Assembly (NCBI GenBank): GCA_963666565.1
Contig: OY762911.1
Location: 2,912,001-2,976,000 of the forward strand
Direction of reading: 5' to 3'
DNA from: Thermoanaerobaculia bacterium
GTDB taxonomy: Bacteria; Acidobacteriota; Thermoanaerobaculia; Multivoradales; Multivoraceae
Length of the DNA: 64,000 bases
Both the position numbers and the translations under genes were made by a program. Position 1 is the stretch's first letter; the number at the start of each line of letters is the position of its first letter. This document shows, one piece after another, positions 16,764 to 38,419 of this stretch. The notes beneath the pieces are model-generated. The model saw nothing but the letters and a program-made list of their open reading frames with translations. It did not search any database and had not been told where the DNA came from.

Positions 16764-19700
16764 CTAGAACCGGATCTTGAAGTTGGCCCGGACCGTCCGC
16801 GGGCGCTGGAAGAACCGGCGCACGGGCAGAACCTCGCCGGCGCTGTTCCAGGAGCGGCGGCGCTGCTGGTTCGTGGCGTTCAGCACCTCGACGCGGAGTT
16901 CGCCGCGGACATCCTGGAAGCCCAGGGGGAATCCCCAGGCGCCGCTCAGGTTGACCGTGTACTCGTCGGCAGTCCGCCTGCCCTCCGTGCCGGACGGATG
17001 GAGCGGGAAGCCGACGCCCGTGTTCGAGGTTCCGGGGCGCTGGTTGGCGTTGGCGTCCGTCACGTCGACCGGCAGGCAGATCGGAATCGACGTGGGGATG
17101 CCGGGCGGCCGCGGACCGCAGGGCCGCTCGTAGCCGGCGCCGGACGACGTGGTCCAGGGCGTGCCGGTCTGGAACGTCAGGTGGCCGCCCAGCGTCAGAT
17201 CCTGGTTGCCCAGGCGCCAGGTCTTGAAGCCGAAGGTGTTCCAGATCCACTCGCGGTCGTACGTGCCGTTGGCCCCGCGCCGGTTGATCATGCTCGCCGG
17301 GTAGCCGAGCCAGTCCGTCAGGCGGGCGACGCAGTCCTCCGGATAGAGCGGCGTCCGCCCGGTGCGGCGGTCCGGCCTCGTCTGGGCGGCCTGGCAACTA
17401 TCGATGTTCTGCTGGTTCAGCACGACGTGAGCCGCCTCGAGGTAGGTGCTGTTCGTGTTGTTCCACCAGGCGCCGGCGCCGGTCGTGTCCGTGCTGGCCC
17501 AGGCCAGGTTGTTGTACAGCGCCCAACCGTCCGCGAAGCGGCGGTTCAACTGGAGCTGAACCCCCTTGAACGAGTTCTTCGCCGGATCGGCCAGTTCAAG
17601 GGCCTCCCGGTTCAGTTGGGCCGGGCGCTCGGCCGGGTCGTAGCCCTGAGCGGCCCAGGTGGCGGCCCGCGCGTCATCGAAGGCCACAAGTATGTCGTAC
17701 AGGTCGTGGTAGTTCTCGGTGACGCCGATGTTCCGTCCCTTGTGGTCGAGCTGGTTGTTGGAGAACATCATGTCCTGCAACTGCCAGTCGATGTACTTGA
17801 GGTCAAGGGCCCAGTTGGGGCGGAACTGCCACTCGAGGCCGAGGATCGCCTCCTGCTTGTAGTACGTCTGGACGTCGTAGTCCAGGACGCCGGCCTGGAC
17901 CGCGTCCCACATGAGGCCCGGCGTCGTCAGCTCCCAGGAGAGGTTGTAGCCGGGCAAGGGCGCGCCGACCGTTCCGTTGTGGAGCGAGTCCCGCCGTTGC
18001 GGGACGCGGCAACCGTAGTTGGTCAGGCCGAGGAACTGCAGGAAGTCGAAGGTCGCGATGTCCGCGGGATCGCAGAAGAGGAAGACCTCGTGCCCCTCGT
18101 AGCCGTTCCACAGGTCGTGCATGCTGGGGACGTTCGAGTCGCCGCCCGAGATCCACGCCTGGTTGAGCATCGCGTGGTACTGGCCCCAGCTCGCGTTGAG
18201 CAGCAGGGCGCCGTCCCCCTTGATGTCGTAGGTGATGTTGATCCGCGGGTCGACGTAGGTGTCGTCGATGACCTGGCGCCGGACGTCGTTCCACGCCTCC
18301 TGCTGCTCGGCCCGAAGGCCCATGTTGATCGTCCAGTGATCGCCGATCGTGAAGCGGTCCCGAATGTAGTAGCCGAGGTTGCGCACCTCGCTGTCGCCCG
18401 TGCCGCGTCCGACGCAGGTGCCGGTCGTACGGACGACTTCGCCGTTCACGTGCTCGACCGTGGTCGGCCGGTGGGGCATGCCGTCAGGGGCGTTGCCCTC
18501 GCAGGTCAGGAAGGTCGAGTTGTGGTCGGTGAAGTAACAGGTCCGGCCGCGGATGGGCGAGGTTCCCGTGCGGGTGAACGGCGTGGCGCAAGTGTCGTCG
18601 GCGATCGTCCCCGCGCCGAGGAAACCGAACGGGTTCGTCGGATCGAAGCCCCAGCCCTGGAGCAGGGGCACGCGGGCGTTCTCGCCCTCCCACTTCGTGT
18701 CCTGGTAGTCGATGCCGTACTTCAGCTCGTGGTTCGCGCCGGCGAACTGGGTCAGGCCGACGTTCGCCTGCTCGCGCGGGAAGGCGTTGAAGCCGAAGCC
18801 GTCGGAGAGGATCCAGCCGTTGTGCCAGGAAGAGAGGTTCTCGGCGTCCCGGTAGACGTTGTAGTTGTTGCCGGGGTAGAAGATGCCCTTGCTCGGGTCG
18901 AACGGGAACCGCAGCGGGTAGCTGGTGTCGCCGCCCGACGTGTTCGTCGCCGTGTGGCCCGCGACCGGCCCGCGGTCGAGCGACTTCGCCTGCAGGCAGG
19001 TCTCGATCATGCGGGCGGGCGTGTCGCGGTAGTTGTCCTGGGACAGCCACTCGAGGACGGGAATGCCGTCCACCGCCTGGGCGGCGGGGTTCTCCTGCTG
19101 GAGCGTGTCGTGGCAGGCGAGGAACTTGTTCTCCTGGGTCTCCTGGTCGGCGATCTTCGCCTCCATGAACCAGTTGCTGGAGAGCGCCCAGTTCCAACTG
19201 ATCGTGGAGAGGACGCTGTCGTTCTCGTGCGGCGTCGGCGTCCAGTAGTCGTAGGACTGCCAGTTGAAGTAGTTGCGGAACGCCGGGGTGTCGATCCCGG
19301 ATGCCGCGAACGAGTGCGACGCCGACGGCTGCATGTTCAGCTTGAGGATGCGGGCGTCGGCGTACAGGCTGACGTCGTACGGGTCGCCGCCGAGCAGGCG
19401 CTCGGAGTAGGCGTCGTCGAACTCGGACGCGCCAATGAAGAACCAGAACTTGTCCCGCATGAGAGGACCGCCGGTGGAGAACTCGTAGCCGTCGCTGGAA
19501 CCGGCCCACTCGTCGCTGCCGGGCAGGCAGGCGTCGCGGTTGATCGTGGAGACTTCCTCGACGATGCTGGGCGGGATCTGGCCGCGGCCCTGGTCCCGTT
19601 CGTCGCCGTGGCAGCGCCGGAACCAATCGACCGGGTAGGGCCGGTTCCGTCGTTCCGCCAGCGAGGGCTGATCCCTGTAGTCGGCGCTCCAGTCGACCCG

Positions 19701-20444
19701 CTGGTGGTTCCAGAGGACATCCGCGTGCCAGCGGTTCGTGCCCGACTTGACGATCACGTTGGTGGAGGAGCCGATGTAGCGGCCGTACTCGGCGGAGGAG
19801 CCGCCGGCCTCCATCGACACCTCGGTCAGAGCCGTCGTGGGCAGGAACACGCGGCTGCCGCCGAACTTGGCGAACGTCGTGTCGACGCCGTCCACGTAGA
19901 CGCCCTGATCGGCGAAGTGGGTGCCGTTGACCGAGGGCCGCGTCTGCTGGATGTCGTCGTTCTCCGCGTCCGCGGTGACGCCCGGAAGGGCGTTGATCAC
20001 GCCGTAGTAGGTGCGCGTCGTGCCGGCGGTCTGCTCGCCGATCTCGGAGGTCACCGTGCTGCCGGCCGTGACGTTGAACTTGTCGACCATCGGCGTTTCG
20101 GCCGTGACGTCGACGACGCCGCCCTCGACCGCGGCCTGCAGGGTGAGGTCGACGGACTTGCGGTCGCCGGCCGCGGCGTGGAAGGTCGCCTGGGCTCCGC
20201 CCAGACCCTCCAGTTCCGCGGTCAGTTCGTAGGTGTCGGGCACGACGCCGACGAACCGGTACTGGCCGTTCTCGTCCGTGATCGCGAACTTGTCGCCGCG
20301 GCCGCTGGAGAGGGTGACGCTGACGCCGGGCAGGGCGGAGCCCCCCGGGTCGACGACGGTGCCGCTGATCGTGGCCGTCTCCGGCGCGTCGGCGAAGGCG
20401 GCGAAGGGGATCAGCAGAATCAGGATCGCTGCGAGTCGCTTCAT
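16764..20444 (-). CDS. TonB-dependent receptor 1 (Oar-like, N-terminal carboxypeptidase-regulatory-like domain)
   Basis: Signal peptide; ISGTVVDPGGSALPGVSVTL; plug motifs DGVDTT, SAEYGR, NVIVKSGTN; GGPLMRDKFWFF; C-terminal Phe (FKIRF). Confidence 0.9.
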   Translation of the reverse strand: MKRLAAILILLIPFAAFADAPETATISGTVVDPGGSALPGVSVTLSSGRGDKFAITDENGQYRFVGVVPDTYELTAELEGLGGAQATFHAAAGDRKSVDLTLQAAVEGGVVDVTAETPMVDKFNVTAGSTVTSEIGEQTAGTTRTYYGVINALPGVTADAENDDIQQTRPSVNGTHFADQGVYVDGVDTTFAKFGGSRVFLPTTALTEVSMEAGGSSAEYGRYIGSSTNVIVKSGTNRWHADVLWNHQRVDWSADYRDQPSLAERRNRPYPVDWFRRCHGDERDQGRGQIPPSIVEEVSTINRDACLPGSDEWAGSSDGYEFSTGGPLMRDKFWFFIGASEFDDAYSERLLGGDPYDVSLYADARILKLNMQPSASHSFAASGIDTPAFRNYFNWQSYDYWTPTPHENDSVLSTISWNWALSSNWFMEAKIADQETQENKFLACHDTLQQENPAAQAVDGIPVLEWLSQDNYRDTPARMIETCLQAKSLDRGPVAGHTATNTSGGDTSYPLRFPFDPSKGIFYPGNNYNVYRDAENLSSWHNGWILSDGFGFNAFPREQANVGLTQFAGANHELKYGIDYQDTKWEGENARVPLLQGWGFDPTNPFGFLGAGTIADDTCATPFTRTGTSPIRGRTCYFTDHNSTFLTCEGNAPDGMPHRPTTVEHVNGEVVRTTGTCVGRGTGDSEVRNLGYYIRDRFTIGDHWTINMGLRAEQQEAWNDVRRQVIDDTYVDPRINITYDIKGDGALLLNASWGQYHAMLNQAWISGGDSNVPSMHDLWNGYEGHEVFLFCDPADIATFDFLQFLGLTNYGCRVPQRRDSLHNGTVGAPLPGYNLSWELTTPGLMWDAVQAGVLDYDVQTYYKQEAILGLEWQFRPNWALDLKYIDWQLQDMMFSNNQLDHKGRNIGVTENYHDLYDILVAFDDARAATWAAQGYDPAERPAQLNREALELADPAKNSFKGVQLQLNRRFADGWALYNNLAWASTDTTGAGAWWNNTNSTYLEAAHVVLNQQNIDSCQAAQTRPDRRTGRTPLYPEDCVARLTDWLGYPASMINRRGANGTYDREWIWNTFGFKTWRLGNQDLTLGGHLTFQTGTPWTTSSGAGYERPCGPRPPGIPTSIPICLPVDVTDANANQRPGTSNTGVGFPLHPSGTEGRRTADEYTVNLSGAWGFPLGFQDVRGELRVEVLNATNQQRRRSWNSAGEVLPVRRFFQRPRTVRANFKIRF

Positions 20445-20489
20445 GAGTGCTCCTCGGATGAGGGTTGGATCGAGGCCGAGTGAGAGGCC

Positions 20490-20517
20490 ACTATACGACC
20501 GATGGGGAGCGAGTCAA
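20490..20517 (-). promoter_or_regulatory. Sigma70-like promoter of TBDR-1
   Basis: TTGACT-16nt-TATAGT on minus strand; GAGGAG RBS downstream. Confidence 0.7.
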
Positions 20518-20530
20518 AGGAGGCGGGACG

Positions 20531-20548
20531 GATCCAGCAGGTTGGATC
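20531..20548. promoter_or_regulatory. Palindromic operator, copy 1
   Basis: GATCCA-GCAGGT-TGGATC; homologous sites lie upstream of the other two TBDRs. Confidence 0.7.
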
Positions 20549-20767
20549 GAGTCTTGCGGGGGCTCGACATCGCGCGCGGCGTACCGTGGTCCGCTTGGGA
20601 GTTGCGGCGCGAGACCGTCGACTCGGCTCGCACGCGCGGCGTACCCGCTCGGCTATGCTGTCCGCGCCCTTGCCGAGTGCCCGGACTGTCGGGCCGCGCA
20701 TTCTCGCTCCTTCATCGGGGCGCTCCCGACCGGAGGCGTCCCACCCGATCAAGGAGAACGACACACC

Positions 20768-21454
20768 ATGACGACCCACGACACAGCGCCGGCGCCCGCC
20801 GGTTCCATCACCCTGGACGAGTTCCGTCAGAGCCTGGCGGAACTCCGCGCACGCGGCCGCGAACTGGAGGCCAGGAAGGACCGGGACCATGCGCGGGCCA
20901 TGAGAGAACTGGCCGAAATCCGGGAGCAGCAGAAAGAGACGGACCGCATCGTGAAGGAGACGGCTCTTCAGCAGAAGGAAACCGACCGTCAGATGAAGGA
21001 GACGGACCGTCGCCTGAAGAAGACGGAGAGCCTCTTCAACACGCAGTGGGGCAGGCTGATGGAGAGCCTGGTCGAGGGCGACATCGTGGCCCTGTTGAGG
21101 GATCGCGGCATCGACGTGCGGCACACCCAGGAGGGGCGGTTCCGCGGCAGGCGGAACGGGGAGCACTTCGAGGTCGACATCCTCGCGGAGAACGGCCGGG
21201 AAGTCGTGGTCGTGGAGGTGAAGACGACGCTGAGGCCGGAGCACGTGAAGAAGTTCGTCTCGAGGCTCCCGGACTTCGCGGAGTACTTTCCCGCCTATCG
21301 GGGCAAGCGAGTCCTCGGCGGGATGGCGTACCTGCAGTGCGACCCGTCATTGCGGACTCACGCGGAACGCCAGGGGCTGTTCGTGATCCAGGCGACGGGA
21401 AGCAGCGCCAGCATCGTCAACGCGCCGGGCTTCGTGCCCCGCGTCTTCTCCTGA
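20768..21454 (+). CDS. DUF3782-like coiled-coil + PD-(D/E)XK nuclease-fold protein
   Basis: AAGGAG RBS; heptad KETDR repeats; WGRLMESLV; EVDILAENGREVVVVEVK. Confidence 0.8.
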   Translation: MTTHDTAPAPAGSITLDEFRQSLAELRARGRELEARKDRDHARAMRELAEIREQQKETDRIVKETALQQKETDRQMKETDRRLKKTESLFNTQWGRLMESLVEGDIVALLRDRGIDVRHTQEGRFRGRRNGEHFEVDILAENGREVVVVEVKTTLRPEHVKKFVSRLPDFAEYFPAYRGKRVLGGMAYLQCDPSLRTHAERQGLFVIQATGSSASIVNAPGFVPRVFS

Positions 21455-21462
21455 CTCCGCCG

Positions 21463-21488
21463 CTGGGTGCGCGGGTCTTCTGACCCGC
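21463..21488. repeat. Family-A single REP
   Basis: CTGGGTGCGCGGGTCTTCTGACCCGC between convergent genes. Confidence 0.85.
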
Positions 21489-21556
21489 TCTGCGGAGGCG
21501 CCGCTGAGCGGACGGCAGGCCGGACTCGACCATGCGCCGGCCGGCCGCCGCGCTCA

Positions 21557-22561
21557 CTATCGCTTGTCCGTGTCGCCCCGTTCGAGCCGGCGGAGGAAAT
21601 CCGCGGCGCTGGCGCATCGGAGCGCTGCGCGCATGAGTTCGGCCTCGCCCAGGTCGTGGAGGTCAGCCAGGCTCGCCCGCTGGGCCGACGTTACGCTGAT
21701 GCCCCGTTCCGCGAGAAGGGCGATCGCGCTTGCGGTTCGCGCTTGGGTCCTCCCCACGGCCTCGCCTTCGGTTCTCCCCTTGGCTTCGCCTTCGGCTCTC
21801 CCCTTGGCGCGGCTCTCGTCGCGGTGACGCCGCAGCCACGGGTCGTCGTCCGGCCCGGTACCTTCGGCGGCCGCCAGCGCCATGCCGACGCGGTGAAGAG
21901 CCTCGACCGTGCCGTGCGACCTTGCCGGTTCGTTCAGGGCCGTGTGGATCTCCTTCGCCGTCCAGCCGGGAAAGACGCGGCTGCTCGTCGCCTGACGGAA
22001 ACGGCCGGCTTCGAGGACGTGGATCGTGAGCCCCGGCAGGCGCGACTTCGGGCGGCTCGCGGACCGTTCCTCCGGCACGTCCACCCACACCTCGGGGAAG
22101 CCCCATGCCTCGTAGAGCGGCACTTTCCAGCCGCGGACGTCGGTGAAGTAGTCGACCTCCAGGACCACGTCCGGCTTGTCGTCCGCGTCCACGTCGAGCC
22201 TCGGCTTCAGTTCCCCTGCGGGTGGCGGGTCTAGGTAGACGATCTGGTCCGCCTGCAGCAACTGGAACGTCCTGCCGCGAGCGCCGAAGCGAACGAGGTC
22301 GGCTGTCCCGAAGGTCTCGATGGGCGCTCCTCTGGAAGCGGCGATCAGGCGCGCGAGCCCGGCCAGCCGCTGCGAGGGCTGCTCGTGGAAGAAGGTCGTC
22401 GGCTCGCTCACGACCATTGCGGTCGCGGTGCGGGATTCCCAATACTCCAGCCGGCCCTCGTAGTCCTCGATCTCCTCGGGGGGAATGTGGATGGCCTTGC
22501 AGCCGGGGAAGTCGGCCGGATCGAGCGGCGCCGCCTTCCATCCAGACGGCGGATTGGGCAT
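21557..22561 (-). CDS. Uma2 family endonuclease-like protein with C-terminal RAEGEAKG repeats
   Basis: RLEYW, HEQP, QADQIVY, PDVVLEVD, LYEAWGFPEVWV, SRVFPG; tail RAKGRAEGEAKGRTEGEAVGR. Confidence 0.8.
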   Translation of the reverse strand: MPNPPSGWKAAPLDPADFPGCKAIHIPPEEIEDYEGRLEYWESRTATAMVVSEPTTFFHEQPSQRLAGLARLIAASRGAPIETFGTADLVRFGARGRTFQLLQADQIVYLDPPPAGELKPRLDVDADDKPDVVLEVDYFTDVRGWKVPLYEAWGFPEVWVDVPEERSASRPKSRLPGLTIHVLEAGRFRQATSSRVFPGWTAKEIHTALNEPARSHGTVEALHRVGMALAAAEGTGPDDDPWLRRHRDESRAKGRAEGEAKGRTEGEAVGRTQARTASAIALLAERGISVTSAQRASLADLHDLGEAELMRAALRCASAADFLRRLERGDTDKR

Positions 22562-22788
22562 CAGTTCAGAATGAGGTGGACGATGAGTGCCAGCACGCCC
22601 ACCGTCCCGTACGTCGCCAGGATGAGCAGTAGCCAGAGAGCCGTGCCGATCCTGCCTAGCTCGGCCCGTAGGCCGCTAACCTGGTTGCAGAGGTCACGGG
22701 CCTGGGACTCAAGGTAGGTTGTCGAGGACCATTGGATCGGCGCGCCGGCACGCGGGGCTCCGAACTTCGCTAGATCGTCTCTCTTCAT
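22561..22788 (-). CDS. Small protein with C-terminal transmembrane helix
   Basis: AGGAG RBS at 22796-22800; hydrophobic LWLLLILATYGTVGVLALIVHLIL; TGATG overlap with the Uma2 start. Confidence 0.6.
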   Translation of the reverse strand: MKRDDLAKFGAPRAGAPIQWSSTTYLESQARDLCNQVSGLRAELGRIGTALWLLLILATYGTVGVLALIVHLILN

Positions 22789-23018
22789 GGCGGTTCTCCT
22801 GGTTGCTTGAGGGTCGAGATAGACGACCTGGCCCGCCGGCAACGGCGCCTGCGTCCCGCCGTCATGGCGTCGATCCTACAGGGCCGGAAATCCTCCCGCG
22901 ACCCGGTCGACTGTCCATGCGCTGCCAGCCTCGGCGCCTCGACTCGGAGGCGACGACAGGACCCGGGCGTGCCGCGGTGGAACCTGCGGTAGATCCCGTC
23001 GCGAACAGCGCCTATGAC

Positions 23019-23165
23019 TCAGCCCTTCACGAGTTCGTCCAGACCGATGGCGAGCGCGTCGGCGAGGCGCCGGAGCGTGTGAACGGAGCCGGTTCGCCGG
23101 CCAGCCTCGATGCCGACGATCTGGACGCGGCTGGTGGCGGCGGCGCGGGCCGGTGGCCCGGCAGT
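23019..23165 (-). pseudogene. Remnant of an XRE/HTH_3 regulator or antitoxin
   Basis: Startless frame AATSRVQIVGIEAGRRTGSVHTLRRLADALAIGLDELVKG* (not in ORF track); in-frame TAG upstream. Confidence 0.7.
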
Positions 23166-23388
23166 TTCCCTGGGAAGCGGTTTCGACTATCTTGAGCATG
23201 GGTGGCCTGTCCTTTCTCCCGGCATCCGACCGGGCATTCGGTTGAACACCCAAGAGGATAGGCCGCCTGGCCTACATCACCGGATCCACGACTTCTGGGA
23301 CTAGCCCGGCTGGCGACATGGACGACCTCAAGGCAGTCCCGTCACGCATGAACCACCACGCGCGTTCTTCGACGAACTGGCCTGACCC

Positions 23389-24423
23389 TTAGGGGGCTCC
23401 CGTACGCGGTCGCCGCAACTCGAGACCGGAGGCGGATTCCTTCCGCGTTCGTATCACGCGGCGATCTTCGTCCCCGGCCAGAGTGGCCGCAAGGTCCTCA
23501 GCAAACGTAAGGTCGTGGAAATGCCACGAGTGAGACCAGTCGCCCACGTCCAGCTCGGGCTCGCGAAGGCCCTTCCAATGATTGCCAACGTTGACGTTAA
23601 CGACGCAATCGGAGGTGTCCTCCGGAGTTCCAACCCGACCGATTCGCGGCTGAGCGCCGAGGCGCTTCACGTTCGACAGCTTGAGCGCTCGATCATAAGG
23701 ATTCTGGTAGTTCGTGATGCGGGTGGAGTGCTCGAAGAGAGAGGCGCTCTTGTTGTCGCGCATCGACAGGGATTTGCGCGCGACATCGGCACCGATAAAC
23801 GCGACCTGACTCACATTCCAGTTCACTCTTGACAAGGGACGTGATTGAGCGGCGTAGTAGAAGGCCTCCCGCACCACATAGGCGCCTGTCGAGTGTGCAA
23901 GGAGATGCACGTCGATGTCACAGTGTAGCTCGTCTTGAGCGCGTTGTGCGAGTGCAAGCAGTCGAATCGCATCGTCAGCCAGTTCATCGGCAGTCTTTCG
24001 CGCGTCAGATCTATCTTCTAGGTAGTTGAGCGCTGAGTCAGCCGAGGGCCAGTCGAAGCTAACGACGGCTCCTGCGAAGCCGAACTTCGAGAGATTTCCT
24101 CGCAAGAGATCCTGACGTTGAAGAACCCTTTCCTGGGAGTTGTTGTAGCCGTGGACGAAGATCAAGACGTCGCCACGAGTGTAACGACTGTAAGGGTTCT
24201 TGGGGTCCGCGATCTCGGACGGGCCTAGGTCTGCGCGCCGACGGAGTTCTGCTAGCCATTTGTCCCTGTCTAGGCGGTGCTCTTCTGGGTGGGGTGTCTC
24301 TCGGGAGGGGACGAGCAGATAGCGAGTAGGTCCGGGCTCGGAGCCGAACTTACCGTTAGACCTGACGTTTCGTACGCAGACCATGAAGTTGGGCAGAGGG
24401 TTCTCAAGGCTCTCTCGTTCCAT
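23389..24423 (-). CDS. Alpha/beta hydrolase, DUF900-like
   Basis: VLIFVHGYNN, FDWPS, HLLAHSTG nucleophile elbow, late His (SHSWH); AGGAG RBS; codon usage less GC-biased. Confidence 0.85.
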   Translation of the reverse strand: MERESLENPLPNFMVCVRNVRSNGKFGSEPGPTRYLLVPSRETPHPEEHRLDRDKWLAELRRRADLGPSEIADPKNPYSRYTRGDVLIFVHGYNNSQERVLQRQDLLRGNLSKFGFAGAVVSFDWPSADSALNYLEDRSDARKTADELADDAIRLLALAQRAQDELHCDIDVHLLAHSTGAYVVREAFYYAAQSRPLSRVNWNVSQVAFIGADVARKSLSMRDNKSASLFEHSTRITNYQNPYDRALKLSNVKRLGAQPRIGRVGTPEDTSDCVVNVNVGNHWKGLREPELDVGDWSHSWHFHDLTFAEDLAATLAGDEDRRVIRTRKESASGLELRRPRTGAP

Positions 24424-24441
24424 ATCGAGCGCTCCTACTGG

Positions 24442-24918: not shown

Positions 24919-24932
24919 TCTTGGGTCTCCTG

Positions 24933-24969
24933 AAAGAAGGGGGGAGAGAGCCGAAGCCCTCTCCCCCTT
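24933..24969 (-). terminator. Intrinsic terminator of TBDR-2
   Basis: Minus strand GGGGGAGAGGGC-TTCG-GCTCTCTCCCCCC-TTCTTT, near-identical to the TBDR-1 terminator. Confidence 0.8.
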
Positions 24970-25022
24970 GATTTCCGACCAAACCAAGGGGCGTCAGGCC
25001 CCCGGGTTCTTGCCGATCCGGT

Positions 25023-29532: not shown

Positions 29533-29693
29533 CTCCGTATCCTCCTTGGGCGTACTCCGCGTCCGTTGCTGCAAAGCGGACAGATCATATGACCGGACGT
29601 TGTTGGTGTCCAGAACGGAGCCGTCGCACCGCTGCCGGATGCGTCTACTTGGTGGAGTTTCCCCCGCTTTCGCGGACGGTTCGTGTTTAGGGT

Positions 29694-30554: not shown

Positions 30555-30859
30555 GAACCCGTAGACCTCTTGGGCTTTGTCTCCCGGGCGAACCAGGCCG
30601 TTGCTCTTGCCAGTATCTCCCGCTCTTCCCGCAGCCGGCGATTCTCGCGGCGCAGACGGCGGAGCTCTTCGCGCTCCGCCGTGGTCAGTCCGTCAGCGCG
30701 GCGGCCTTCGTCCCGATCCGCCTGCGCCGCCCAGTTGCGGATGGACTGCGCTGAAGGCTCGAACTCGCGGGCGAGTTGGTCCGGGCTGCGCCCGGACCGG
30801 ACCAGATCCACCATCTGGCGCCGGTACTCAGCCGGGTACCGGGGTCTTGATCTTGGCAT
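30551..30859 (-). CDS. IS3 transposase OrfA (HTH + leucine zipper)
   Basis: RYPAEYRRQMVDLV...ELRRLRRENRRLREEREIL; GGAGG RBS; ATGA overlap with orfB. Confidence 0.9.
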   Translation of the reverse strand: MPRSRPRYPAEYRRQMVDLVRSGRSPDQLAREFEPSAQSIRNWAAQADRDEGRRADGLTTAEREELRRLRRENRRLREEREILARATAWFARETKPKRSTGS

Positions 30860-31215
30860 CGTGGGTACCTCCTCCTCCAAGGATGTGGTGTCCACGAAAC
30901 CGGGTCAACCTCAGGAAACACCCCCCGCGGACGACGCGCCGGCCCTGGGCACCCCAACGTCTCTGCTTTCGTCCCGCCATCGATCCGCCTTGCCAACGTG
31001 TGCTCTCCACTATTCAACGGGATGCCCGCTGTGTCACGTACGTTGGCAGAGAGGGCGGCTGCGATCGTGCGGGTCATTCGGATGTCCTTGTGGCGGGCTC
31101 AGCGCCTCTTGGACAGACCATGCGATCGGACACTGTTTGTGTCCAGAGGATCGAGCGCGGTGTTTGGGAAGGTGCGAGTGGCTGGTTGCTGGCCAGCGAC
31201 TGGCGTACTCCGTGC

Positions 31216-33897
31216 CTACTCGGGCGTGGGCTCAAGGGTGACAGTGAAGGGAAGCTCCTCTGGACCCGGATCGAGTTCGAACGCTGCACCCCACCGGTGT
31301 TCGCCGACCCAGAGCGAAACTGTGTAGGCGCCCGGAGTCAAGCAGCCGAGGCCCACCCGGCCGTCCTCCGAGAAGGTCGTACCGGGCAGTGCTCCAGGCA
31401 GATGATGGGCGACCTTGACGCCAGCTTCGGTGTTGACCCGGACGAGGGAGAGGGTTTCGCCCGCACAACTTCGGCCCAAGCACCGGAGCTCCAGCAGGCG
31501 GCCCAATGGCAAGGTGCGATTCAACTGTGCCGTCCGCGCGGCCTCGACCGTCACCTTGTCGGCACCGACACAGGCGCCACCATGACTCCAGAGGACCGTG
31601 ACCTCTCCTGGTGGTACGTTGTCGGCTCGGAGAACGTCGGCGGCCTCGGCGACGAGGCCAGCCGCGGCCAAAGTCTCGTCGGGACCCAGGACGTGAATCC
31701 ATGCACCGACCATCGGAAGACCCGGTGTGGCGAGCCGGACTTCCACTTCGCCGAGTGTCCCCTCGTTGACTTGGAGAGTCTGGAAGGGAAAGTGCATGTC
31801 CGCGTTCAGAGTGAGTTCGGTGTGGGCAAGGCCCGCTCCGGTGTCGGCCTGTAGCCGATAGTGGCCCGGCGGTGCAGGGGGCAGGGTGAAGTACCCATTC
31901 TCTGCCGTGGAGGTGCCGGCGACTTCGAGACCCAGATCGCCGATCAGTGCAACGTGGGCCTGCTTGAGGGTGTGGCCTGCTGGCGGCCGCAGTTCGCCGC
32001 TGACTACGGAAGTCCCGCCCAACTCGAACTGGGAAAGCGGCCGATCAGGCCAGATCCTGCCGATACGGCTTCGACCGTTTGCCGAGACCCACGTCATCCA
32101 CAAGGACTCGTCGGGCGCTCCTTTCACCGTGAACGAGCCGTCCGCTGCCACCCTGGATTGGCGCAGGAACGCTTGGCCGGGCCGCAACGTCGTCGAGTGC
32201 GTAACGGTGTCGCCTTGTTGGACATTGATCTGGAGGAGCCCGGTGCCTGCCCGCGAGCCTGGAATCCGCTCGAAACCGACAAGACCCCCATTCACCGGAA
32301 CGCCGTCCAGCGTCAAAGTGCTTTGGATGGTGCGGTTCCGGTACACGAGGTCCACTTCGACGCGGTCGGCAGGGTCGTAGGCGTGGACCTGAATCTCCTT
32401 CGACACGAGGAGTGAGTCAGAGGAATCCCGGAGGTCGATCCGGTAACGACCGGATGCGAGCTGGACCACCGCGAACGAAGATGGGGCTCGGTTCCCTCCA
32501 CCTGTCGGTTGGAGATTGGCCGTCGCCAGAGGCGCTTCCATCTCACGAAACCGGTCCATCACGCGCACCGTGCCATGTGTCACTCCGTGCGCTCTCACGA
32601 GAACGGTGCGAGGCGCGGGCATCCATATCTCCCCGAGGTCGGCACGCTCTGAGGCGTCGAGGGCAATGAGCCGTGCGATAGGAGGCCCTGTCCTACACTC
32701 CGCACGCAGGTAGTAGCGGCCCTCGCTCAGTCCGCCAAGGAGGAAGCCGCCATCGCCGTCTGAGACGGTGATGTCCTGCCTGCCTCGCAGGCGGTGCAGA
32801 ATGTGTGCATTACCGGCCGGCAGAAGCTCCAGTACGCACCCAGCGACGGGCTCGGCACCGCCAGCGGCGAACAGCCGTCCGGTCACGACAGCGCCCGGTT
32901 CCAGATAGACGACGCCGAGGTCCATGACGCGCCCCGGATTCAGAGATAGGCCGTAGGCACCTGACAGGAGGTGGTTCTCCGCCTGGAAGTCGACTTGCAC
33001 GAGATCGGCCTGCCCAACGTCGCCGGGAATCGGGACGATCACGGGGGACGTCCCCTGCTCGACCTCCGTGCTGAGTGTCGAGTGCGACCGGACCCGCTTG
33101 ATCAAGACGCGCATCGTGAAGCGATCAACGGGAACCCCGGCGGCGGAGAACACCTGCACCCGGACGCCCTCCGAACTTGCTATGCGGACTGCCGCTTCAT
33201 CGCCGGTCGCCTCTGCGGGTAGCCTGAGGAGGATCGGTTGGTCTGGCCAAGGCGAGCCGGCGATGTCTCTCGCGGCGCGGCCATAACCCTCAGCCTCGGC
33301 CAGGACCTCGGCTTCAGGAAAGGCCGACAGACCGGTTACGACAAACCGACCGTCGTTGCCGCTAGCGACGCATCGGCGCACAGCGTCGGCGGGGAATGGC
33401 GCGTTCTCGTCTCTCCAACGCACACAAACAGTAGCTCCTGTCGCCCCCCGGCCATCGGAAGAGAAGACGCGTCCCTCCAAGGACCGTCCTGGCCCGAGCC
33501 GGATTGTCGTCGGCATCCGACCGTCGTCGAAAGTGCCGACGAACCTCTCGTGCTGAGGATGATCGACGACGAGTGTCATTCCGCGAACGCTCGGAAGCCA
33601 ACGCTCCGTCGCACCGTTGCTTGTGGTTCGCGTCCGAATCAGGAGCGCGCCGTTAGGAAGCGGTGCACCTGCATGTGGCGCCCGGAGTACCTGGACGACC
33701 GCGCCTTCAATGCCGCCACCTTCGCCGTCCACGACCGAAACGGCCGCCGCGTCAGGAGGGGAGTCCTGCGAGAACCCCACGCCGGGCGCGACGGCGCTTG
33801 CAAGCGCCCCAGCGGCCAGCAGCAACCTCGACCCGCGAACCGGACGAAGTTCGTGTTGGAGCGGCAGACCAGCCTGTCCGCTTCCCGTTGTTCTCAT
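31216..33897 (-). CDS. Secreted protein with repeated carboxypeptidase-regulatory-like beta-sandwich domains
   Basis: Signal-like N-terminus; repeated units (LEGRVFSSDGRGATGATV, SGNDGRFVVTGL, SDGDGGFLLGGLSEGRY, TAENGYFTLPPAPPGHY); less GC-biased codons. Confidence 0.75.
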   Translation of the reverse strand: MRTTGSGQAGLPLQHELRPVRGSRLLLAAGALASAVAPGVGFSQDSPPDAAAVSVVDGEGGGIEGAVVQVLRAPHAGAPLPNGALLIRTRTTSNGATERWLPSVRGMTLVVDHPQHERFVGTFDDGRMPTTIRLGPGRSLEGRVFSSDGRGATGATVCVRWRDENAPFPADAVRRCVASGNDGRFVVTGLSAFPEAEVLAEAEGYGRAARDIAGSPWPDQPILLRLPAEATGDEAAVRIASSEGVRVQVFSAAGVPVDRFTMRVLIKRVRSHSTLSTEVEQGTSPVIVPIPGDVGQADLVQVDFQAENHLLSGAYGLSLNPGRVMDLGVVYLEPGAVVTGRLFAAGGAEPVAGCVLELLPAGNAHILHRLRGRQDITVSDGDGGFLLGGLSEGRYYLRAECRTGPPIARLIALDASERADLGEIWMPAPRTVLVRAHGVTHGTVRVMDRFREMEAPLATANLQPTGGGNRAPSSFAVVQLASGRYRIDLRDSSDSLLVSKEIQVHAYDPADRVEVDLVYRNRTIQSTLTLDGVPVNGGLVGFERIPGSRAGTGLLQINVQQGDTVTHSTTLRPGQAFLRQSRVAADGSFTVKGAPDESLWMTWVSANGRSRIGRIWPDRPLSQFELGGTSVVSGELRPPAGHTLKQAHVALIGDLGLEVAGTSTAENGYFTLPPAPPGHYRLQADTGAGLAHTELTLNADMHFPFQTLQVNEGTLGEVEVRLATPGLPMVGAWIHVLGPDETLAAAGLVAEAADVLRADNVPPGEVTVLWSHGGACVGADKVTVEAARTAQLNRTLPLGRLLELRCLGRSCAGETLSLVRVNTEAGVKVAHHLPGALPGTTFSEDGRVGLGCLTPGAYTVSLWVGEHRWGAAFELDPGPEELPFTVTLEPTPE

Positions 33898-34182
33898 TCT
33901 CGAAGCCGAGCCAAGCGAGGGACGGTCTTGGGGTTGCCTATCTCGGCGCGGCCGAGCGCGGGTCGCGCGACGCTACCGGGCGCTCTCGGATTCGGTGCGG
34001 GGAGGTTGCGAATCGCCGACGAGGAACTCGACGCGGGTTCCCCACCCGCTTCCGGTGCCGATTGGCACAGGGCGGAAGCCGCGAGAACCGGTCACCGGAG
34101 GGAACCAAAGCGCCGTCAGGGAGACGTTCCAGCGGTGAACCCGCTGGAACAAGCAGGTCGGTGGGCTCCCTTGGACCATCAC

Positions 34183-34578
34183 TCAACCTTGACAGATCGC
34201 CTCAGCCTCCTCAACGGAGGACGCACCAAGCATGAGAAGGCCCAAGTCAATCTGAGCTTGATCTCCCCTCCGTAATCCAGTAGCGAGTGTCGTGCAGGCG
34301 ACTTGGTTGCCAGAGGGAGTGACTCCATCTGGGGTGGGGTCCGTTTCGCGGACGGCCAGCGGTTCCCGGGGTTCGATCGGCGCAGCGGGGCACGGAATGG
34401 GCGTCACTGTGGTAGTGGACGTGATCTGCCCATTCCCGTGCTGCGTAATGGTCGTGGTAACGAGGTAGCAAGCGCCAGCACCACCAGCAGCGAGTGCGGG
34501 CGAACTGAAGAGCAGAAGCACTACTCCCAGAAGAAGTACCACGACGGTTGTCTGAGCGAACCTGCCTGTCCTGATCAT
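34183..34578 (-). CDS. Small secreted protein with 4 Cys, unknown function
   Basis: AAGGAG RBS; signal peptide ending PALA; Thr-rich segment flanked by Cys. Confidence 0.7.
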   Translation of the reverse strand: MIRTGRFAQTTVVVLLLGVVLLLFSSPALAAGGAGACYLVTTTITQHGNGQITSTTTVTPIPCPAAPIEPREPLAVRETDPTPDGVTPSGNQVACTTLATGLRRGDQAQIDLGLLMLGASSVEEAEAICQG

Positions 34579-34626
34579 TGCCTACGGGCTCCTTTGGGCG
34601 AACTGCGGAAAGGGCGAAGAAAGACG

Positions 34627-34677
34627 ATCCTACACGTCGGCTGAGAAGGGTGTCAACGCAGTGTACTGCTCAGTACA
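34627..34677 (-). promoter_or_regulatory. Sigma70-like promoter with upstream palindrome
   Basis: TTGACA-18nt-TAGGAT; TGTACTG-CT-CAGTACA at 34662-34677. Confidence 0.6.
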
Positions 34678-34685
34678 TGTGAAGC

Positions 34686-34718
34686 AAAGGGGAGAGAGGC
34701 AAAGCTCTCTCCCCTTTT
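34686..34718 (-). terminator. Intrinsic terminator of TBDR-3 (possibly bidirectional)
   Basis: AAAGGGGAGAGAGGC-AAA-GCTCTCTCCCCTTTT, homologous to the other two. Confidence 0.8.
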
Positions 34719-34768: not shown

Positions 34769-37700
34769 CTAGAAGCGGAACCTCAGCGAGGCGCGCACCT
34801 GGCGCGGGCGCTGGAAGAAGCGCCGCACCGGGTAGACCTGCCCGTCGCCGCCCCAGGAGCGTCGCCGCTGCTGGTTGGTGGCGTTCAGCACCTCGACCCG
34901 GACTTCACCGCGCACGTCGCGGTAGCCCATGGGGAAGCCCCAGGCGCCGCTCAGGTTGAGGGTGTACTCGTCCGACGTGAAGCGGCCCTGCGTGCCTGGG
35001 GCATGCAGATTGAAGCCGACATCGCGGTTCGGAGTACCTGGTTTCGGGTCGTTGGGGTTGCGGTTGACCGTGGCCGAATCGTCGAGATCGATACGCGTCC
35101 CCTCCGAGCGGACCCAAGGCGTTCCGGTCTGGAAGCTCAGATGACCCGAGAGAGTCAGGTCCTGGTTGCCGAGGCGCCAGGTCTTGAACCCGAACGAGTT
35201 GTAGATCCAGGTCCGATCGTAGGCGCCGTTGAGACCGCGCCGGTTGATCATCGACACCGGATAGCCGAGCCACTGGGAGAGTGCCTGATCGCAGTCCACC
35301 GGGAAGAGCTCCGTGCGACCGGTGCGCCGGTCCGGAATCGCCTGGTTGGCGTTGCACTCGTCGATGTGCTGCTGTTCTAGCACGACACTCAGGTTCTCGA
35401 GGTAGCTGCTGTTCGTGTTGTTCCACCAAGCGCCGGCACCGGTCGTGTCGGTCTCCGACCAGGACACATTGTTGTACAGAGCCCAGCCGTCGGCGAAGCG
35501 CCGATTGAGCTGTATCTGAAGCCCGCGGTAGGAGTTCTTCGCCGGATCCGCCGAGGCCAGAGCCTCGTCGTTGAGGTTCCGGGGAAGGCCCTTGGCCTCG
35601 CGCGCGTCGGCCGTGTTGGTCACGATCTGCGCAAGGTCGTGGTAGTTGCCGGTGATGAAGATGTTCCGGCCCTTGTGGTCGTACTGGGTGTTGGAGAACA
35701 TCATGTCCTGCATCTTCCAGTCGATGTACTTGACGTCGAGCGCCCAATTCGGAGCGAACTGCCATTCAAGGCCGAGGATCAGATCGTCGCGGTAGTACGG
35801 GTCGATGTCGTGATCCCAGATCTCGCAGTCGATGGCGGACATCTCGCCGTCCTGGCATGGCCTCACGGCGTCCCACATCAGTCCAGGAACCAGGGTGCTC
35901 CAGGCGAAGTTGTAGCCAGGAAGACGTGCGCCGACGGTGCCGGTAGCACGCGTGTCGTTGCGGTCGGGAACCAGGCACCAGACGGCGGCCTCGACCGGAT
36001 CGCAGAACAGCCAGACTTCGTAGCCTTCGTAGCCGTTCCACTGATCGTGCATGCCGCCGGCGGTGTCGCCTCCGCCGGAGATCCAGGCCTGGTTCAGCAT
36101 CGCGTGGTACTGACCCCAGTTCGCGGTGAGCAGCAGCCGACCGTCACCCTTGACGTCGTAGGTGATGTTCACTCGCGGATCAGCGTAGGTGGAGTCCACG
36201 ACCTTGCGGCGAATGTCGTTCCAGCCCTCTTGGATCTCGGCACGCACGCCGAGGTTGAATGTCCAATGATCGCCGATGGTGAACCGGTCTCTGAGGTAGA
36301 AGGCGGTGTCCTTCATCTCGGCGTCGCCGGTCCCGCGACCGATACAACTCGTACGGTCGTTGAAGTCCGTACGGTGGATCTGGCCGTTGACCTTCGTGAT
36401 CTCAACTGGCGTGAGTTCCTCGCCGACCGGGCCCTGGCAGGTCAGTTTGGGCGAGTTGTAGTCGACGTAGGTGCAACCGCGCGACCGGGTGGTCTGCGGC
36501 GGGATGAACCCCGGGATCGGCGTGTAGGGGTTGTCGGGCGAGGTGGTCGTCGGACGAGCCCAGCCGAGGCCGCAGCTATCGTCCACGAGAGTGCCGGCGC
36601 CGCCGTACCCGAACGGGTTGTAGGAGTCGTAGCCCCAGCCGTTCATGAACGACGTACGGGCGTTCTCGCCCTCCCATTTCGTGTCCTGGTAGTCGATGCC
36701 GTACTTCAACTCGTGGTTGGCGCCGACGAATTGGGTCAGGCCGACGTTGGCCTGCTCTCGGGGGAACGCGTTGAAGCCGAAGCCGTCCGAGAGGATCCAG
36801 CCGTTGTGCCAGGCGCCGAGGTTCTCACCGTCGACGTAGACCTTGTAGTTGTTGCCCGGCCAGAAGAAGCCCTTGCTGGGGTCGAACGGGAACCGTAGCG
36901 GCCAGTTCGTGTCGCCGCCGGACGTGTTCAACTCGCTGTGCCCCGCTTCGGGTCCACGGTCGAGCGCCTTCGCCTGCAGACATGTGGTCACCATCTCCGC
37001 GGGGACTTCCGGCAGGTGGCTGAGGCCGAGCCAGTCGAGAATCGGTTGGCCGTCGACGCTGAGAACGTCCGGGTTTTCCTGGGCGAGCGTGTTGTGGCAG
37101 CCGAGAAACTTGTTCTCCTGCGTTTCCTGTTGGGCAAGCTTGGCCTCGAGGAACCAGTTGGACGAGATTGCCCAGTTCCAGTTGCCGGTCAGCAGGTCGC
37201 TGTCGTTCTCGTGCGGCGTCGGCGTCCAGTAGTCGAACGACTGCGGGTTGAAGTAGTTCCTGAACGTCGGCGTCTCGATCCACGAGGCGTTGAACGAGTG
37301 GGCGTTGTTCGCCTGCAGGTTCAGCTTCATGATCCGCGTGTCGTCGAACAGGCTGATGTCGTAGGGGTCGCCGCCGACCAGCCGCTCGGAGTACGCGTCG
37401 TCGAACTCGCTGTAGCCGGTGTAGAACCAGAACTTGTCGCGCGCGATGGGGCCGCCGAGGGAAACCTCGAAGCCGTCGCTGGCGCCGGCCCACTCGGAGC
37501 CGCCCGGCCGGCAGGGCTCGAGTTCGCGGGAGCCGTCCGTGCCGCCGGGGATCAGTCCGCGGCCCTGGTCCCGGTCATCGCCGTGGCAGCGCTTGAACCA
37601 GTCCGCCGGATAAGGCTTGTTCGTCCTCTCGGTCAGGGAAGGCTGGTCCTTGTAGTCGGCGCCCCAGTCGATTCGCTGGTGGTTCCAGAGGGTGTCCGCG

Positions 37701-38419
37701 TGGAACCGGTTCGTGCCCGACTTGACGATGACGTTCGTGGCGGAACCGACGTAGCGGCCGTACTCGGCCGACGATCCGCCGGCCTCCATGGAGACCTCGG
37801 TCAGGGCAGTCGTCGGCACCCGGACCCGGCTGCCGCCGAACTTGGCGAACGTCGTGTCGACGCCGTCGATGAACACGCCCTGGTCGGCGAAGTGCGCGCC
37901 GTTGACCGAGGGACGGGTCTGCTGGATGTCGTCGTTCTCCGCGTCGGCGGTGACGCCGGGCAGAGCGTTGATGATGCCGTAGTAGGTGCGGGTGACGCCG
38001 CCGATCTGCTCGCCGATCTCGCCGGAAACCGTGGCGCCGGCGGAGACGTTGAACTTGTCGACCATCGGCGTCTCGCCGGTGACGGTGACCTCGCCCTCGA
38101 TCGCAGCCTGCAGCGTGAGGTCGAGGGATGTGCGGTCGCCGGCCACCGCGCGCACCTGGGCCGCGGCTTCGCCGAGGCCCTCCAGCGAGGCGGTCAGGCT
38201 GTAGTCGCCGGGGGTCACGCCGACGAAGCGGTAGGCGCCGTTCTCGTCGGTGATGCCGAACTTGTCCCCGCGCTCGCCGCTCAGCGTGACGCTCACGCCG
38301 GGCAGGGGCGATCCGCCGGGATCCACGATCCGGCCGCTGATCGTCGCCGTCTCGGGCGCGTCGGCAAGGGCGCCGACGGGCAGGAGCAGCAGCAACGCGG
38401 CCACCAAGAGTCGTTTCAT
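34769..38419 (-). CDS. TonB-dependent receptor 3 (paralog)
   Basis: MKRLL start by homology, GGAGG RBS; colinear with TBDR-1 and -2; ends LRFRF. Confidence 0.9.
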   Translation of the reverse strand: MKRLLVAALLLLLPVGALADAPETATISGRIVDPGGSPLPGVSVTLSGERGDKFGITDENGAYRFVGVTPGDYSLTASLEGLGEAAAQVRAVAGDRTSLDLTLQAAIEGEVTVTGETPMVDKFNVSAGATVSGEIGEQIGGVTRTYYGIINALPGVTADAENDDIQQTRPSVNGAHFADQGVFIDGVDTTFAKFGGSRVRVPTTALTEVSMEAGGSSAEYGRYVGSATNVIVKSGTNRFHADTLWNHQRIDWGADYKDQPSLTERTNKPYPADWFKRCHGDDRDQGRGLIPGGTDGSRELEPCRPGGSEWAGASDGFEVSLGGPIARDKFWFYTGYSEFDDAYSERLVGGDPYDISLFDDTRIMKLNLQANNAHSFNASWIETPTFRNYFNPQSFDYWTPTPHENDSDLLTGNWNWAISSNWFLEAKLAQQETQENKFLGCHNTLAQENPDVLSVDGQPILDWLGLSHLPEVPAEMVTTCLQAKALDRGPEAGHSELNTSGGDTNWPLRFPFDPSKGFFWPGNNYKVYVDGENLGAWHNGWILSDGFGFNAFPREQANVGLTQFVGANHELKYGIDYQDTKWEGENARTSFMNGWGYDSYNPFGYGGAGTLVDDSCGLGWARPTTTSPDNPYTPIPGFIPPQTTRSRGCTYVDYNSPKLTCQGPVGEELTPVEITKVNGQIHRTDFNDRTSCIGRGTGDAEMKDTAFYLRDRFTIGDHWTFNLGVRAEIQEGWNDIRRKVVDSTYADPRVNITYDVKGDGRLLLTANWGQYHAMLNQAWISGGGDTAGGMHDQWNGYEGYEVWLFCDPVEAAVWCLVPDRNDTRATGTVGARLPGYNFAWSTLVPGLMWDAVRPCQDGEMSAIDCEIWDHDIDPYYRDDLILGLEWQFAPNWALDVKYIDWKMQDMMFSNTQYDHKGRNIFITGNYHDLAQIVTNTADAREAKGLPRNLNDEALASADPAKNSYRGLQIQLNRRFADGWALYNNVSWSETDTTGAGAWWNNTNSSYLENLSVVLEQQHIDECNANQAIPDRRTGRTELFPVDCDQALSQWLGYPVSMINRRGLNGAYDRTWIYNSFGFKTWRLGNQDLTLSGHLSFQTGTPWVRSEGTRIDLDDSATVNRNPNDPKPGTPNRDVGFNLHAPGTQGRFTSDEYTLNLSGAWGFPMGYRDVRGEVRVEVLNATNQQRRRSWGGDGQVYPVRRFFQRPRQVRASLRFRF

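Follow-up and report, generated by a model that had tools for sequence, protein, structure and literature searches.

The locus described here raises the question of whether three neighbouring transporter genes, whose products differ mostly in loops bracketed by cysteine pairs, serve to keep a cell surface variable or to divide one kind of task among old gene copies. The genes, named TBDR-1, TBDR-2 and TBDR-3 for TonB-dependent receptor, lie in a stretch of 64,000 nucleotides (the window hereafter; positions 2,912,001 to 2,976,000 of contig OY762911.1, assembly GCA_963666565.1) from a Thermoanaerobaculia bacterium of the phylum Acidobacteriota, and their coordinates are collected in Table 1. 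A preliminary description of the window saw in them a constant scaffold displaying interchangeable, hypervariable loops, either for ligand diversification or for evasion of phages or host immunity. Our analysis makes it rather probable that they are three old and separately transcribed transporters of the Oar type, in which putatively disulfide-stapled loops diverged after the duplications and are now conserved as three binding surfaces. Altogether it seems that old gene copies have divided their work in an ordinary way, and no new mechanism of variation is revealed.

Three paralogous transporters of the Oar type

The three reading frames encode 1226, 1234 and 1220 amino acids, in good agreement with the paralogs of about 1220 residues with conserved plug and barrel that were described at first; they are 70-76% identical to each other, with TBDR-2 at 76% and TBDR-3 at 70% to TBDR-1, and their third-position GC is 0.89-0.94. 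The span originally given for the trio, 16764..38419, is right at 16764; position 38419 is the second methionine (MKRL...) of TBDR-3, which is the start in most orthologs and thus an alternative to 38431, to which the open reading frame (ORF) runs. TBDR-1 is composed of a signal peptide, a CarboxypepD_reg domain (25-103), a TonB-box-like stretch, a plug, a predicted 22-strand barrel and a C-terminal ...KIRF, and a final ...RF, with the C-terminal aromatic residue that serves as outer-membrane insertion signal, is found in 3/3 proteins. The CarboxypepD_reg domain (PF13620, residues 25-108) scores 58, 54.9 and 62.2 bits in TBDR-1, TBDR-2 and TBDR-3 (cut-off 32.3), and the Pfam Plug family (cut-off 23.9) scores 25.0 bits in TBDR-1 and, under the cut-off, 23.4 in TBDR-2 and 19.5 in TBDR-3. 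For the barrel family PF25183 (OMP_b-brl_4), TBDR-3 has a weak hmmscan match of 34.1 bits, and in the six-frame search the trio reaches 19.6-25.6 bits, under the cut-off of 30. Where the N-terminal extension gives way to the plug, one reads VVDVTAETP in TBDR-1 and EVTVTGETP in TBDR-2 and TBDR-3 (family consensus EEITVTSEAP), which may resemble canonical TonB boxes. The genome has five matches to TonB_C (PF03544) above cut-off, the top one of 80.8 bits.

Named homologs of 25-66% identity, from Acidobacteriota and Thermoanaerobaculia, are annotated as 'TonB-dependent receptor' or 'carboxypeptidase regulatory-like domain-containing protein', and a family profile run against the PDB sequences found the N-terminal domain only (NOMO and similar proteins) and no solved transporter. 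Judged from this domain order and from the predicted fold described below, the three proteins are assigned to the Oar-type TonB-dependent transporters.

Paired cysteines and the predicted fold

Each protein has 14 cysteines, exactly as had been counted by hand, at residues 278, 306, 444, 483, 619, 636, 648, 677, 791, 812, 1017, 1038, 1109 and 1123 in TBDR-1, 277, 306, 444, 483, 619, 644, 656, 685, 799, 820, 1025, 1046, 1119 and 1131 in TBDR-2, and 282, 307, 445, 484, 620, 653, 665, 696, 810, 819, 859, 869, 1026 and 1047 in TBDR-3. Twelve of them stand in aligned columns across all three proteins; the seventh pair lies near 1109-1131 in TBDR-1 and TBDR-2, and TBDR-3 is without this C-terminal pair and has C859-QDGEMSAID-C869 in its place. 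The six loop strings quoted in the preliminary description, C-DPVEAAVW-C among them, are matched letter for letter, and its observation that length variation concentrates between cysteine pairs is borne out, for of 76 indel columns in the paralog alignment, 59 fall strictly inside paired cysteines, a region of only 192 of the 1240 columns (15%). All three proteins agree at 0.83 of the ungapped columns of the plug, 0.70 of those of the barrel, 0.60 of those in loops outside the pairs and 0.38 of those between the cysteines.

That cysteines change in pairs, as first noticed in the pair replacement of TBDR-3, which is confirmed, also holds for the family: the number of cysteines past residue 30 is even in 76 of 78 full-length homologs, the commonest counts being 8 (25 proteins), 6 (20), 14 (16) and 10 (10). 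In the 76-sequence family alignment, each pair (in TBDR-1 numbering) was scored by how many sequences have both cysteines, neither, or one alone. The scores are 21, 55 and 0 for 278/306; 19, 57 and 0 for 648/677; 70, 5 and 1 for 619/636; 73, 2 and 1 for 1017/1038; 44, 29 and 3 for 444/483; 11, 64 and 1 for 1109 or 1111 with 1123; and 53, 11 and 12 for 791 with 812 or 826, which is the loosest pair. The pairing exceeds chance. Moreover, the brackets vary in length across the family, for example from 2 to 40 residues for 619-636, from 7 to 38 for 444-483 and from 12 to 31 for 1017-1038; since partners co-occur and bracket lengths vary family-wide, cysteine-bracketed loops of variable length are a trait of the whole family beyond this window.

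To locate the pairs, confident AlphaFold2 models built from 76-sequence alignments were used, which cover residues 106-1226 of TBDR-1 (predicted local distance difference test, pLDDT, 87.1; predicted TM-score, pTM, 0.86) and residues 111-1220 of TBDR-3 (pLDDT 86.6, pTM 0.88). In both models DSSP finds 22 long strands, joined in turn by long connectors (up to ~116 residues) and by short ones of 2-6 residues. The first long connector follows strand 1, so that with the plug periplasmic the long connectors are the extracellular loops L1-L11, the extracellular side being set by strand parity counted from the plug. Loops L1, L4, L5, L7, L9 and L10 have about 66-116 residues, and the TBDR-1 pairs are distributed among them as 278-306 in L1, 444-483 in L4, 619-636 and 648-677 in L5, 791-812 in L7, 1017-1038 in L9 and 1109-1123 in L10; those of TBDR-3 lie in L1, L4, L5 (two), L7 (810-819 and 859-869) and L9. 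In these two models the plug, the strands and the periplasmic turns are all free of cysteines. The extracellular position expected at first is thus predicted for all pairs of TBDR-1 and TBDR-3. The pairs most likely form disulfides, because the pairing statistics, the location in loops and the Dsb proteins of the genome point the same way, the last with five matches to DSBA (PF01323) above cut-off, top 103 bits, in keeping with periplasmic oxidative folding.

Among solved structures, the TBDR-1 model matches FusA (4zgv) with a Z of 37.8 over 683 aligned residues (root-mean-square deviation, rmsd, 5.5; Foldseek E 1e-33) and BtuB (1nqe) with a VIA-align Z of 36.9 over 526 of 549 residues (rmsd 2.7, model residues 14-1121). 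As the top fold matches lie within one Z unit and count as tied, their order gives no clue to the class of substrate.

Age of the array and its transcription units

Close matches to the trio are present in each of the 18 further species sampled from the genus (referred to below by G numbers), and at E<=1e-100 the 12 genomes taken from other genera of the order have no match. After removal of four ORFs without a locatable N-terminus (one of 1090 aa in G008, one of 1425 aa in G010 and two from G016), 39 intact sequences fall into three clean ortholog groups, with 9 of TBDR-1, 16 of TBDR-2 and 14 of TBDR-3; together with the presence throughout the genus, this implies that the triplication is older than the genus. 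In most relatives TBDR-3, TBDR-2 and TBDR-1 follow one another, in this order, as a tight tandem array whose spacers measure about 180-340 bp. There are two TBDR-2-type genes in G004, and the two remaining genes of G002 stand 1.3 Mb apart.

Each gene is followed by a terminator-like, GC-rich hairpin, a pattern with 3 matches in the window vs any match in 0/100 shuffles, and the relative G009 has the same three hairpins after its trio. For TBDR-1 and TBDR-2, promoter-like sites and leaders are conserved in the alignment with G006 and G009. From the hairpins of the individual genes and the promoter-like sites of TBDR-1 and TBDR-2, we conclude that the duplicated unit was a whole transcription unit.

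Conservation within and divergence between the lineages

Within the ortholog groups, the loops that had been called hypervariable proved to be conserved. TBDR-1 loops are nearly invariant over 9 species (L5, for example, shows 0-2 residue differences in 8 of the 9 and three in G012, with a similar picture for the segment of the L10 pair), and TBDR-2 loops are little changed over 16. The ratio of non-synonymous to synonymous differences (pN/pS, as Nei-Gojobori proportions) within groups 1, 2 and 3 is 0.13, 0.21 and 0.19 for whole genes and 0.16, 0.29 and 0.33 between the cysteines, where parsimony counting on the group trees gives substitution ratios (dN/dS) of 0.15, 0.27 and 0.29. By the counting method a non-synonymous deficit is seen at 176, 380 and 385 codons and a nominal excess (p<0.1) at 0, 1 and 2; the site-wise excess that the idea of diversifying loops had called for is found at none of the about 150-160 between-Cys codons per group, gapped columns aside.

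Nevertheless it is between the cysteines that the proteins evolve fastest. These segments have 2.1-2.2 non-synonymous changes per codon in groups 2 and 3 vs 0.8-1.0 in the barrel, and columns that vary in at least one group make up 52% of them, compared with 28% of the barrel and 11% of the plug. Columns conserved inside each group yet specific to it amount to 26% between the cysteines and 8-9% in plug and barrel. Between the paralogs pN/pS inside the cysteine brackets is 0.78 and rises to 1.1 for the bracket in L1 and to 1.3 for that in L10, which suggests, as far as uncorrected proportions with synonymous sites near saturation allow, a fast divergence of the loops after duplication. A contrast of the McDonald-Kreitman type gave odds ratios of 9-83 in the classes with fixed differences, including barrel and, where present, plug; given that synonymous sites have reached saturation (GC3 about 0.9) and only a few of them count as 'fixed', these ratios are not read as positive selection.

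Recombination and variation in populations

The preliminary description further supposed that the loops are interchangeable, and this has to be divided into two parts. Among the paralogs no exchange is detected. Gene conversion was considered for the long identical stretches and rejected, as paralog identity in the same genome and in different genomes differs by <=0.033 in every 40-codon window. Nor are there donor cassettes, for in the 4.79-Mb genome the loop DNA of TBDR-2 and TBDR-3 matches the paralogs only; and no reverse-transcriptase domain is found among the 19 ORFs at 9-50 kb, where no dedicated search for template repeats was made.

Between species, what stands of the supposed exchange is a mosaic in TBDR-3. 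Its nearest relatives are G004 and G005 over residues 19-400, G007 and G012 over 401-586, G013, G005 and G001 in the first part of L5 (L5a) and G007-like sequences over 641-1100, the segment trees being drawn without support values; the nucleotide identity of L5a to G013, G005 and G001 is 0.86 vs about 0.70 to other relatives, and its bracket C620-C653 is of a long form common to these three species. In a permutation test of the pairwise homoplasy index (PHI) type, the signal is significant for TBDR-3 (z -9.3, 0/1000) and TBDR-1 (z -3.4, 0/1000) and not significant for TBDR-2 (z -1.6, 57/1000). Two-form loops, namely L5 and L10 of TBDR-3 and L1 of TBDR-2, are distributed in a way that departs from overall identity. 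On this evidence homologous recombination shifts segments, and loops with them, from species to species, among a few conserved forms and not from a hypervariable pool. A group-1-like L1 is also seen in some TBDR-2 sequences, and its interpretation as a conversion tract was rejected with a nucleotide identity to group 1 of 0.68 vs 0.63; it is more likely retained ancestral sequence.

The population data consist of Logan contigs from four runs (X1-X4) of one study, with at most three samples, on positions 18432-38431. These four runs contain 0.90-0.99 of the sampled sequence words, and sponge, coral-reef and marine metagenome or metatranscriptome runs contain 0.06-0.18, from which no conclusion on habitat or expression is drawn. 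Variation by loop, which the first view of the locus implied, is absent from the TBDR-3 brackets covered by the listed contig pieces, that is from L5 in X2, X3 and X4, from L7 in X1 and X4 and from L9 in X1, X2 and X4; contigs lose rare variants, and this absence is therefore weak evidence. Among the differences listed (109 further ones exist), most fall in the insertion sequence (IS) region at 29.7-31.0 kb. In TBDR-2, the group of differences at 26631-26667 is read as cross-mapping of a paralog, the source contig fitting TBDR-1 exactly too, and those at 26058-26064 are given the same reading, though as an unproven one. Contig joints from 25398 (inside TBDR-2, near L10) to 30646, from 23234 to 30637 and from 23120 to 34346, which have short sides or touch the IS ends, may reflect rearrangement or deletion by the IS in some of the population, or else artefacts of repeats.

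The fast evolution between the cysteines, the TBDR-3 mosaic, the PHI-type signals of TBDR-3 and TBDR-1 and the two-form loops are also what could be expected if exposed epitopes or phage-receptor sites were under diversifying selection, with variants reshuffled by recombination. Such surface variation for evasion, one of the two purposes first proposed, seems quite unlikely in view of TBDR-1 and TBDR-2 loops that stay nearly constant across species, within-group pN/pS of at most 0.33, the lack of any between-Cys codon with non-synonymous excess and of a significant PHI-type signal in TBDR-2, the missing cassettes and paralog conversion and, for what it weighs, the unchanged TBDR-3 brackets in the listed contig pieces. 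Of the loop display proposed in the preliminary description, what fits best is ligand diversification between the paralogs; hypervariability, interchange and evasion are not retained.

Comparison with known transporters

The name Oar is used here for architecture and not for sequence similarity. According to the available portion of PMC6434023, Oar of Myxococcus xanthus is needed for the protease PopC to be secreted, and its subclass is defined by a CarboxypepD_reg N-terminal extension together with plug and barrel. The trio is like it in having a signal peptide, the PF13620 extension, a plug with a TonB-box-like stretch and a predicted 22-strand barrel, and differs in its length of about 1220 aa, its seven cysteine pairs in loops and its tandem arrangement throughout the genus. 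With the solved transporters FusA, BtuB, Fiu, Cir and YddB (6ofr) the trio has the plug-in-barrel fold in common, at 8-16% identity; those proteins are without an N-terminal CarboxypepD_reg, and the loops of the trio are much longer.

The variant structures 4aiq, 4aip and 4b7o of Neisseria FrpB/FetA are also among the fold matches. FrpB/FetA is an antigenically variable transporter whose surface loop varies between strains of one species. Both it and the trio are TonB-dependent barrels with surface loops as the variable part; however, in the trio each paralog keeps its loops from species to species, and it is between the old paralogs that they differ. Native loop disulfides are present in FepA and FhuA of E. 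coli and in TbpA of Neisseria, with one or a few pairs each, compared with seven here, which accumulated stepwise within the family (homologs have 6, 8, 10 or 14 cysteines). Within the wider PF25183 family of Acidobacteriota, the pairs 619-636, 1017-1038 and 791-x are common to the trio, which adds 278-306, 648-677 and either 1109-1123 or 859-869, with ~150 more residues.

The available text of PMC11658791 deals with engineered disulfides only, and in the literature searched, supplementary files aside, there is no account of the trio or of multi-disulfide loops in Oar-type transporters. The most unusual aspects of the trio are the seven predicted loop disulfides and the confinement of length change strictly between them.

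A proposed course of divergence and its rivals

The favoured explanation can be put as follows. Purifying selection would keep plug, strands and periplasmic turns constant; the periplasmic Dsb system would form the disulfides ahead of membrane insertion; and the seven pairs in L1, L4, L5, L7, L9 and L10 would staple the bases of long loop excursions. Such stapled excursions may tolerate insertions and substitutions, and for this reason could diverge quickly after each duplication, whereupon each paralog lineage would have fixed its own version. The lineage-fixed loops would then offer three different conserved surfaces, probably for three related yet distinct ligands. We infer that the transporters import and that ligand specificity lies in the loops.

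Several observations weigh against this explanation. In G003 and G018 the TBDR-1 gene is split, in G014 a TAG stop lies within it, and no TBDR-1-type match is found in G002, G005, G010 and G015, which hints at some redundancy. The 52% of between-Cys columns that vary within a group indicate that constraint is relaxed there, so that some of the divergence may be drift. Variation is greatest in the gapped columns, which the dN/dS counts exclude. Neither a ligand nor a regulator or riboswitch has been identified: NCBIfam gives no meaningful family, and Rfam has 0 matches over 12-47 kb. The FG-GAP/UnbV and TPR (tetratricopeptide repeat) genes that flank the array are without assigned function. Finally, the one characterised Oar-type transporter serves protein export and not import, as far as the available portion of PMC6434023 goes.

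The first two of these observations, along with the wide range of bracket lengths in the family, are those on which one could argue that the copies are redundant, doing one shared job with loops that drift mostly neutrally in tolerant, disulfide-stabilised excursions. We consider this unlikely, since intact frames of all three lineages are kept in most of the 18 species, loop pN/pS stays well under 1, and the lineages have fixed different residues in a quarter of the between-Cys columns.

It is very unlikely, though suggested by the analogy with Oar, that the three proteins are TonB-energised conduits for protein secretion, whose loops or channels would be matched to different cargoes, possibly the FG-GAP/UnbV proteins. 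This would accord with the N-terminal architecture, which is that of the Oar subclass (PMC6434023, available portion), and with a neighbourhood of FG-GAP/UnbV and TPR genes that is conserved and includes at least one FG-GAP/UnbV protein with a signal-peptide-like N-terminus. However, recognition of a cargo would be expected on the periplasmic side, whereas the divergence sits in extracellular loops and conservation is highest in the plug; moreover proteins of this widespread architecture mostly bear annotations as receptors, and the likeness to Oar is one of architecture.

A bolder idea, to which we give little credence, takes the cysteine pairs as built-in 'display sites', in which a disulfide clamping the loop base would let the segment inside accept insertions of 2-40 residues with the barrel undisturbed; from these the genus would have built three receptors whose whole loop variants are still being swapped between species by homologous recombination, as in the TBDR-3 mosaic and the two-form L5 and L10, under phage or host pressure. 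In this view the conserved FG-GAP/UnbV beta-propellers and TPR proteins nearby could be partners of the transporters at the surface.

The trio is a clear natural example of how an outer-membrane transporter diversifies, with plug and barrel fixed and almost all length change in putatively disulfide-bracketed segments. Being kept side by side throughout the genus, it is convenient for asking which loops set the ligand specificity of the Oar-type transporters of Acidobacteriota, which have been little studied, and the seven predicted disulfides and the three sets of lineage-specific loop residues offer targets that can be tested.

Features of the locus and its neighbourhood

Table 1. Position of the transporter genes, their cysteine-bracketed loops, putative signals, insertions and neighbours in the window
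Feature	Position	Strand	Remark
TBDR-1	16764..20444	minus	P0001, 1226 aa
TBDR-2	25023..28727	minus	P0002, 1234 aa; architecture of TBDR-1 repeated
TBDR-3	34769..38431	minus	P0003, 1220 aa; between-species mosaic
TBDR-1 L1 pair C278-C306	19527..19613	minus
TBDR-2 L1 pair, equivalent	27810-27899	minus
TBDR-3 L1 pair, equivalent	37511-37588	minus
TBDR-1 L5, brackets C619-C636 and C648-C677	18414..18590	minus
TBDR-2 L5, brackets C619-C644 and C656-C685	26673..26873	minus
TBDR-3 L5, brackets C620-C653 and C665-C696	36344..36574	minus
TBDR-3 L7, C810-C819 and C859-C869	35825..36004	minus	8 residues between C810 and C819; C859-C869 specific to TBDR-3
TBDR-1 L10 pair C1109-C1123	17076..17120	minus
TBDR-2 L10 pair C1119-C1131	25335-25373	minus	no equivalent in TBDR-3
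Terminator-like hairpin GGGGAGAGGGCTTCGGCTCTCTCCCC with T-rich tail	16586..16611	minus	153 nt past TBDR-1 stop
Hairpin GGGGAGAGGGCTTCGGCTCTCTCCCC, second copy	24941..24966	minus	57 nt past TBDR-2 stop
Hairpin GGGGAGAGGGCTTCGGCTCTCTCCCC, 3 mismatches	34689..34714	minus	55 nt past TBDR-3 stop
Promoter-like TTGACT-16-TATAGT	20490..20517	minus	upstream of TBDR-1
Conserved TTGACA...TATAGT and GAGGAGG leader	about 28740-28800		directly upstream of TBDR-2
Insertion parting TBDR-2 from TBDR-1	20445..25022		about 180-240 bp in relatives
Uma2-like ORF	21557-22561		in TBDR-1/TBDR-2 insertion
DUF900 hydrolase	23389-24423		in TBDR-1/TBDR-2 insertion
Insertion parting TBDR-3 from TBDR-2	28728..34688		mostly about 240-340 bp in relatives
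PIN-domain gene	28950-29324		in TBDR-2/TBDR-3 insertion
IS3-type transposase	29694-30554		in TBDR-2/TBDR-3 insertion
893-aa protein with CarboxypepD_reg domains	31216-33897		in TBDR-2/TBDR-3 insertion
FG-GAP/UnbV (CRTAC1-like) gene	14761..16554	minus	directly downstream of TBDR-1
TPR gene	within 12929-14760		after the downstream FG-GAP/UnbV gene
FG-GAP/UnbV gene	38607..41276	minus	directly upstream of TBDR-3
TPR gene	43117-44997		beyond the upstream FG-GAP/UnbV gene
Second upstream FG-GAP/UnbV gene	44994-46730

The array of the window is parted by two insertions that carry the further genes listed in Table 1. An ORF of 181 aa drawn at 24442-24987, after TBDR-2, overlaps the TBDR-2 hairpin and has no family match, and is for these reasons probably no gene as drawn. 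A dispersed repeat of ~65-90 nt occurs at about 21460-21550 (in the TBDR-1/TBDR-2 insertion), at about 44916-44980 and at 11670-11724, with 71 matches in the 4.79-Mb genome and a contig depth ~40-fold above its surroundings; the high copy number and depth make it look like a repetitive extragenic palindromic (REP) element or a miniature inverted-repeat transposable element (MITE).

Repeated FG-GAP/UnbV and TPR genes flank the array in G009 and G010 as well (loci L059-L062). Their products might serve the transporters as partners or as cargo; since the FG-GAP/UnbV N-termini are not clear lipoboxes, the idea of partners that are surface lipoproteins stays speculative. Families of TonB-receptor and of ASPIC/UnbV paralogs in another acidobacterium are described in the available text of PMC3174227. 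No tRNA genes were found.

Outside the window, a fourth and more distant relative of the trio with 37-40% identity and an open frame of 1064 aa lies at G000:C1:4365094-4368213. The genome has also a dozen further weak matches to TBDR-1, mostly to the N-terminal region only, and OMP_b-brl_4 matches at at least 10 other loci.

Farther out from the array stand PSCyt/DUF1549/DUF1553, DUF1501, formyl-transferase and CoA-transferase genes, and these neighbours recur in G009 and G010. The PSCyt1/DUF1549/DUF1553 gene lies at 9297-11705, and in relatives (L059:4496-8530, L062:5628-10329) a DUF1501 partner is added, so that a 'planctomycete cytochrome' gene pair is kept near the array in an acidobacterium.

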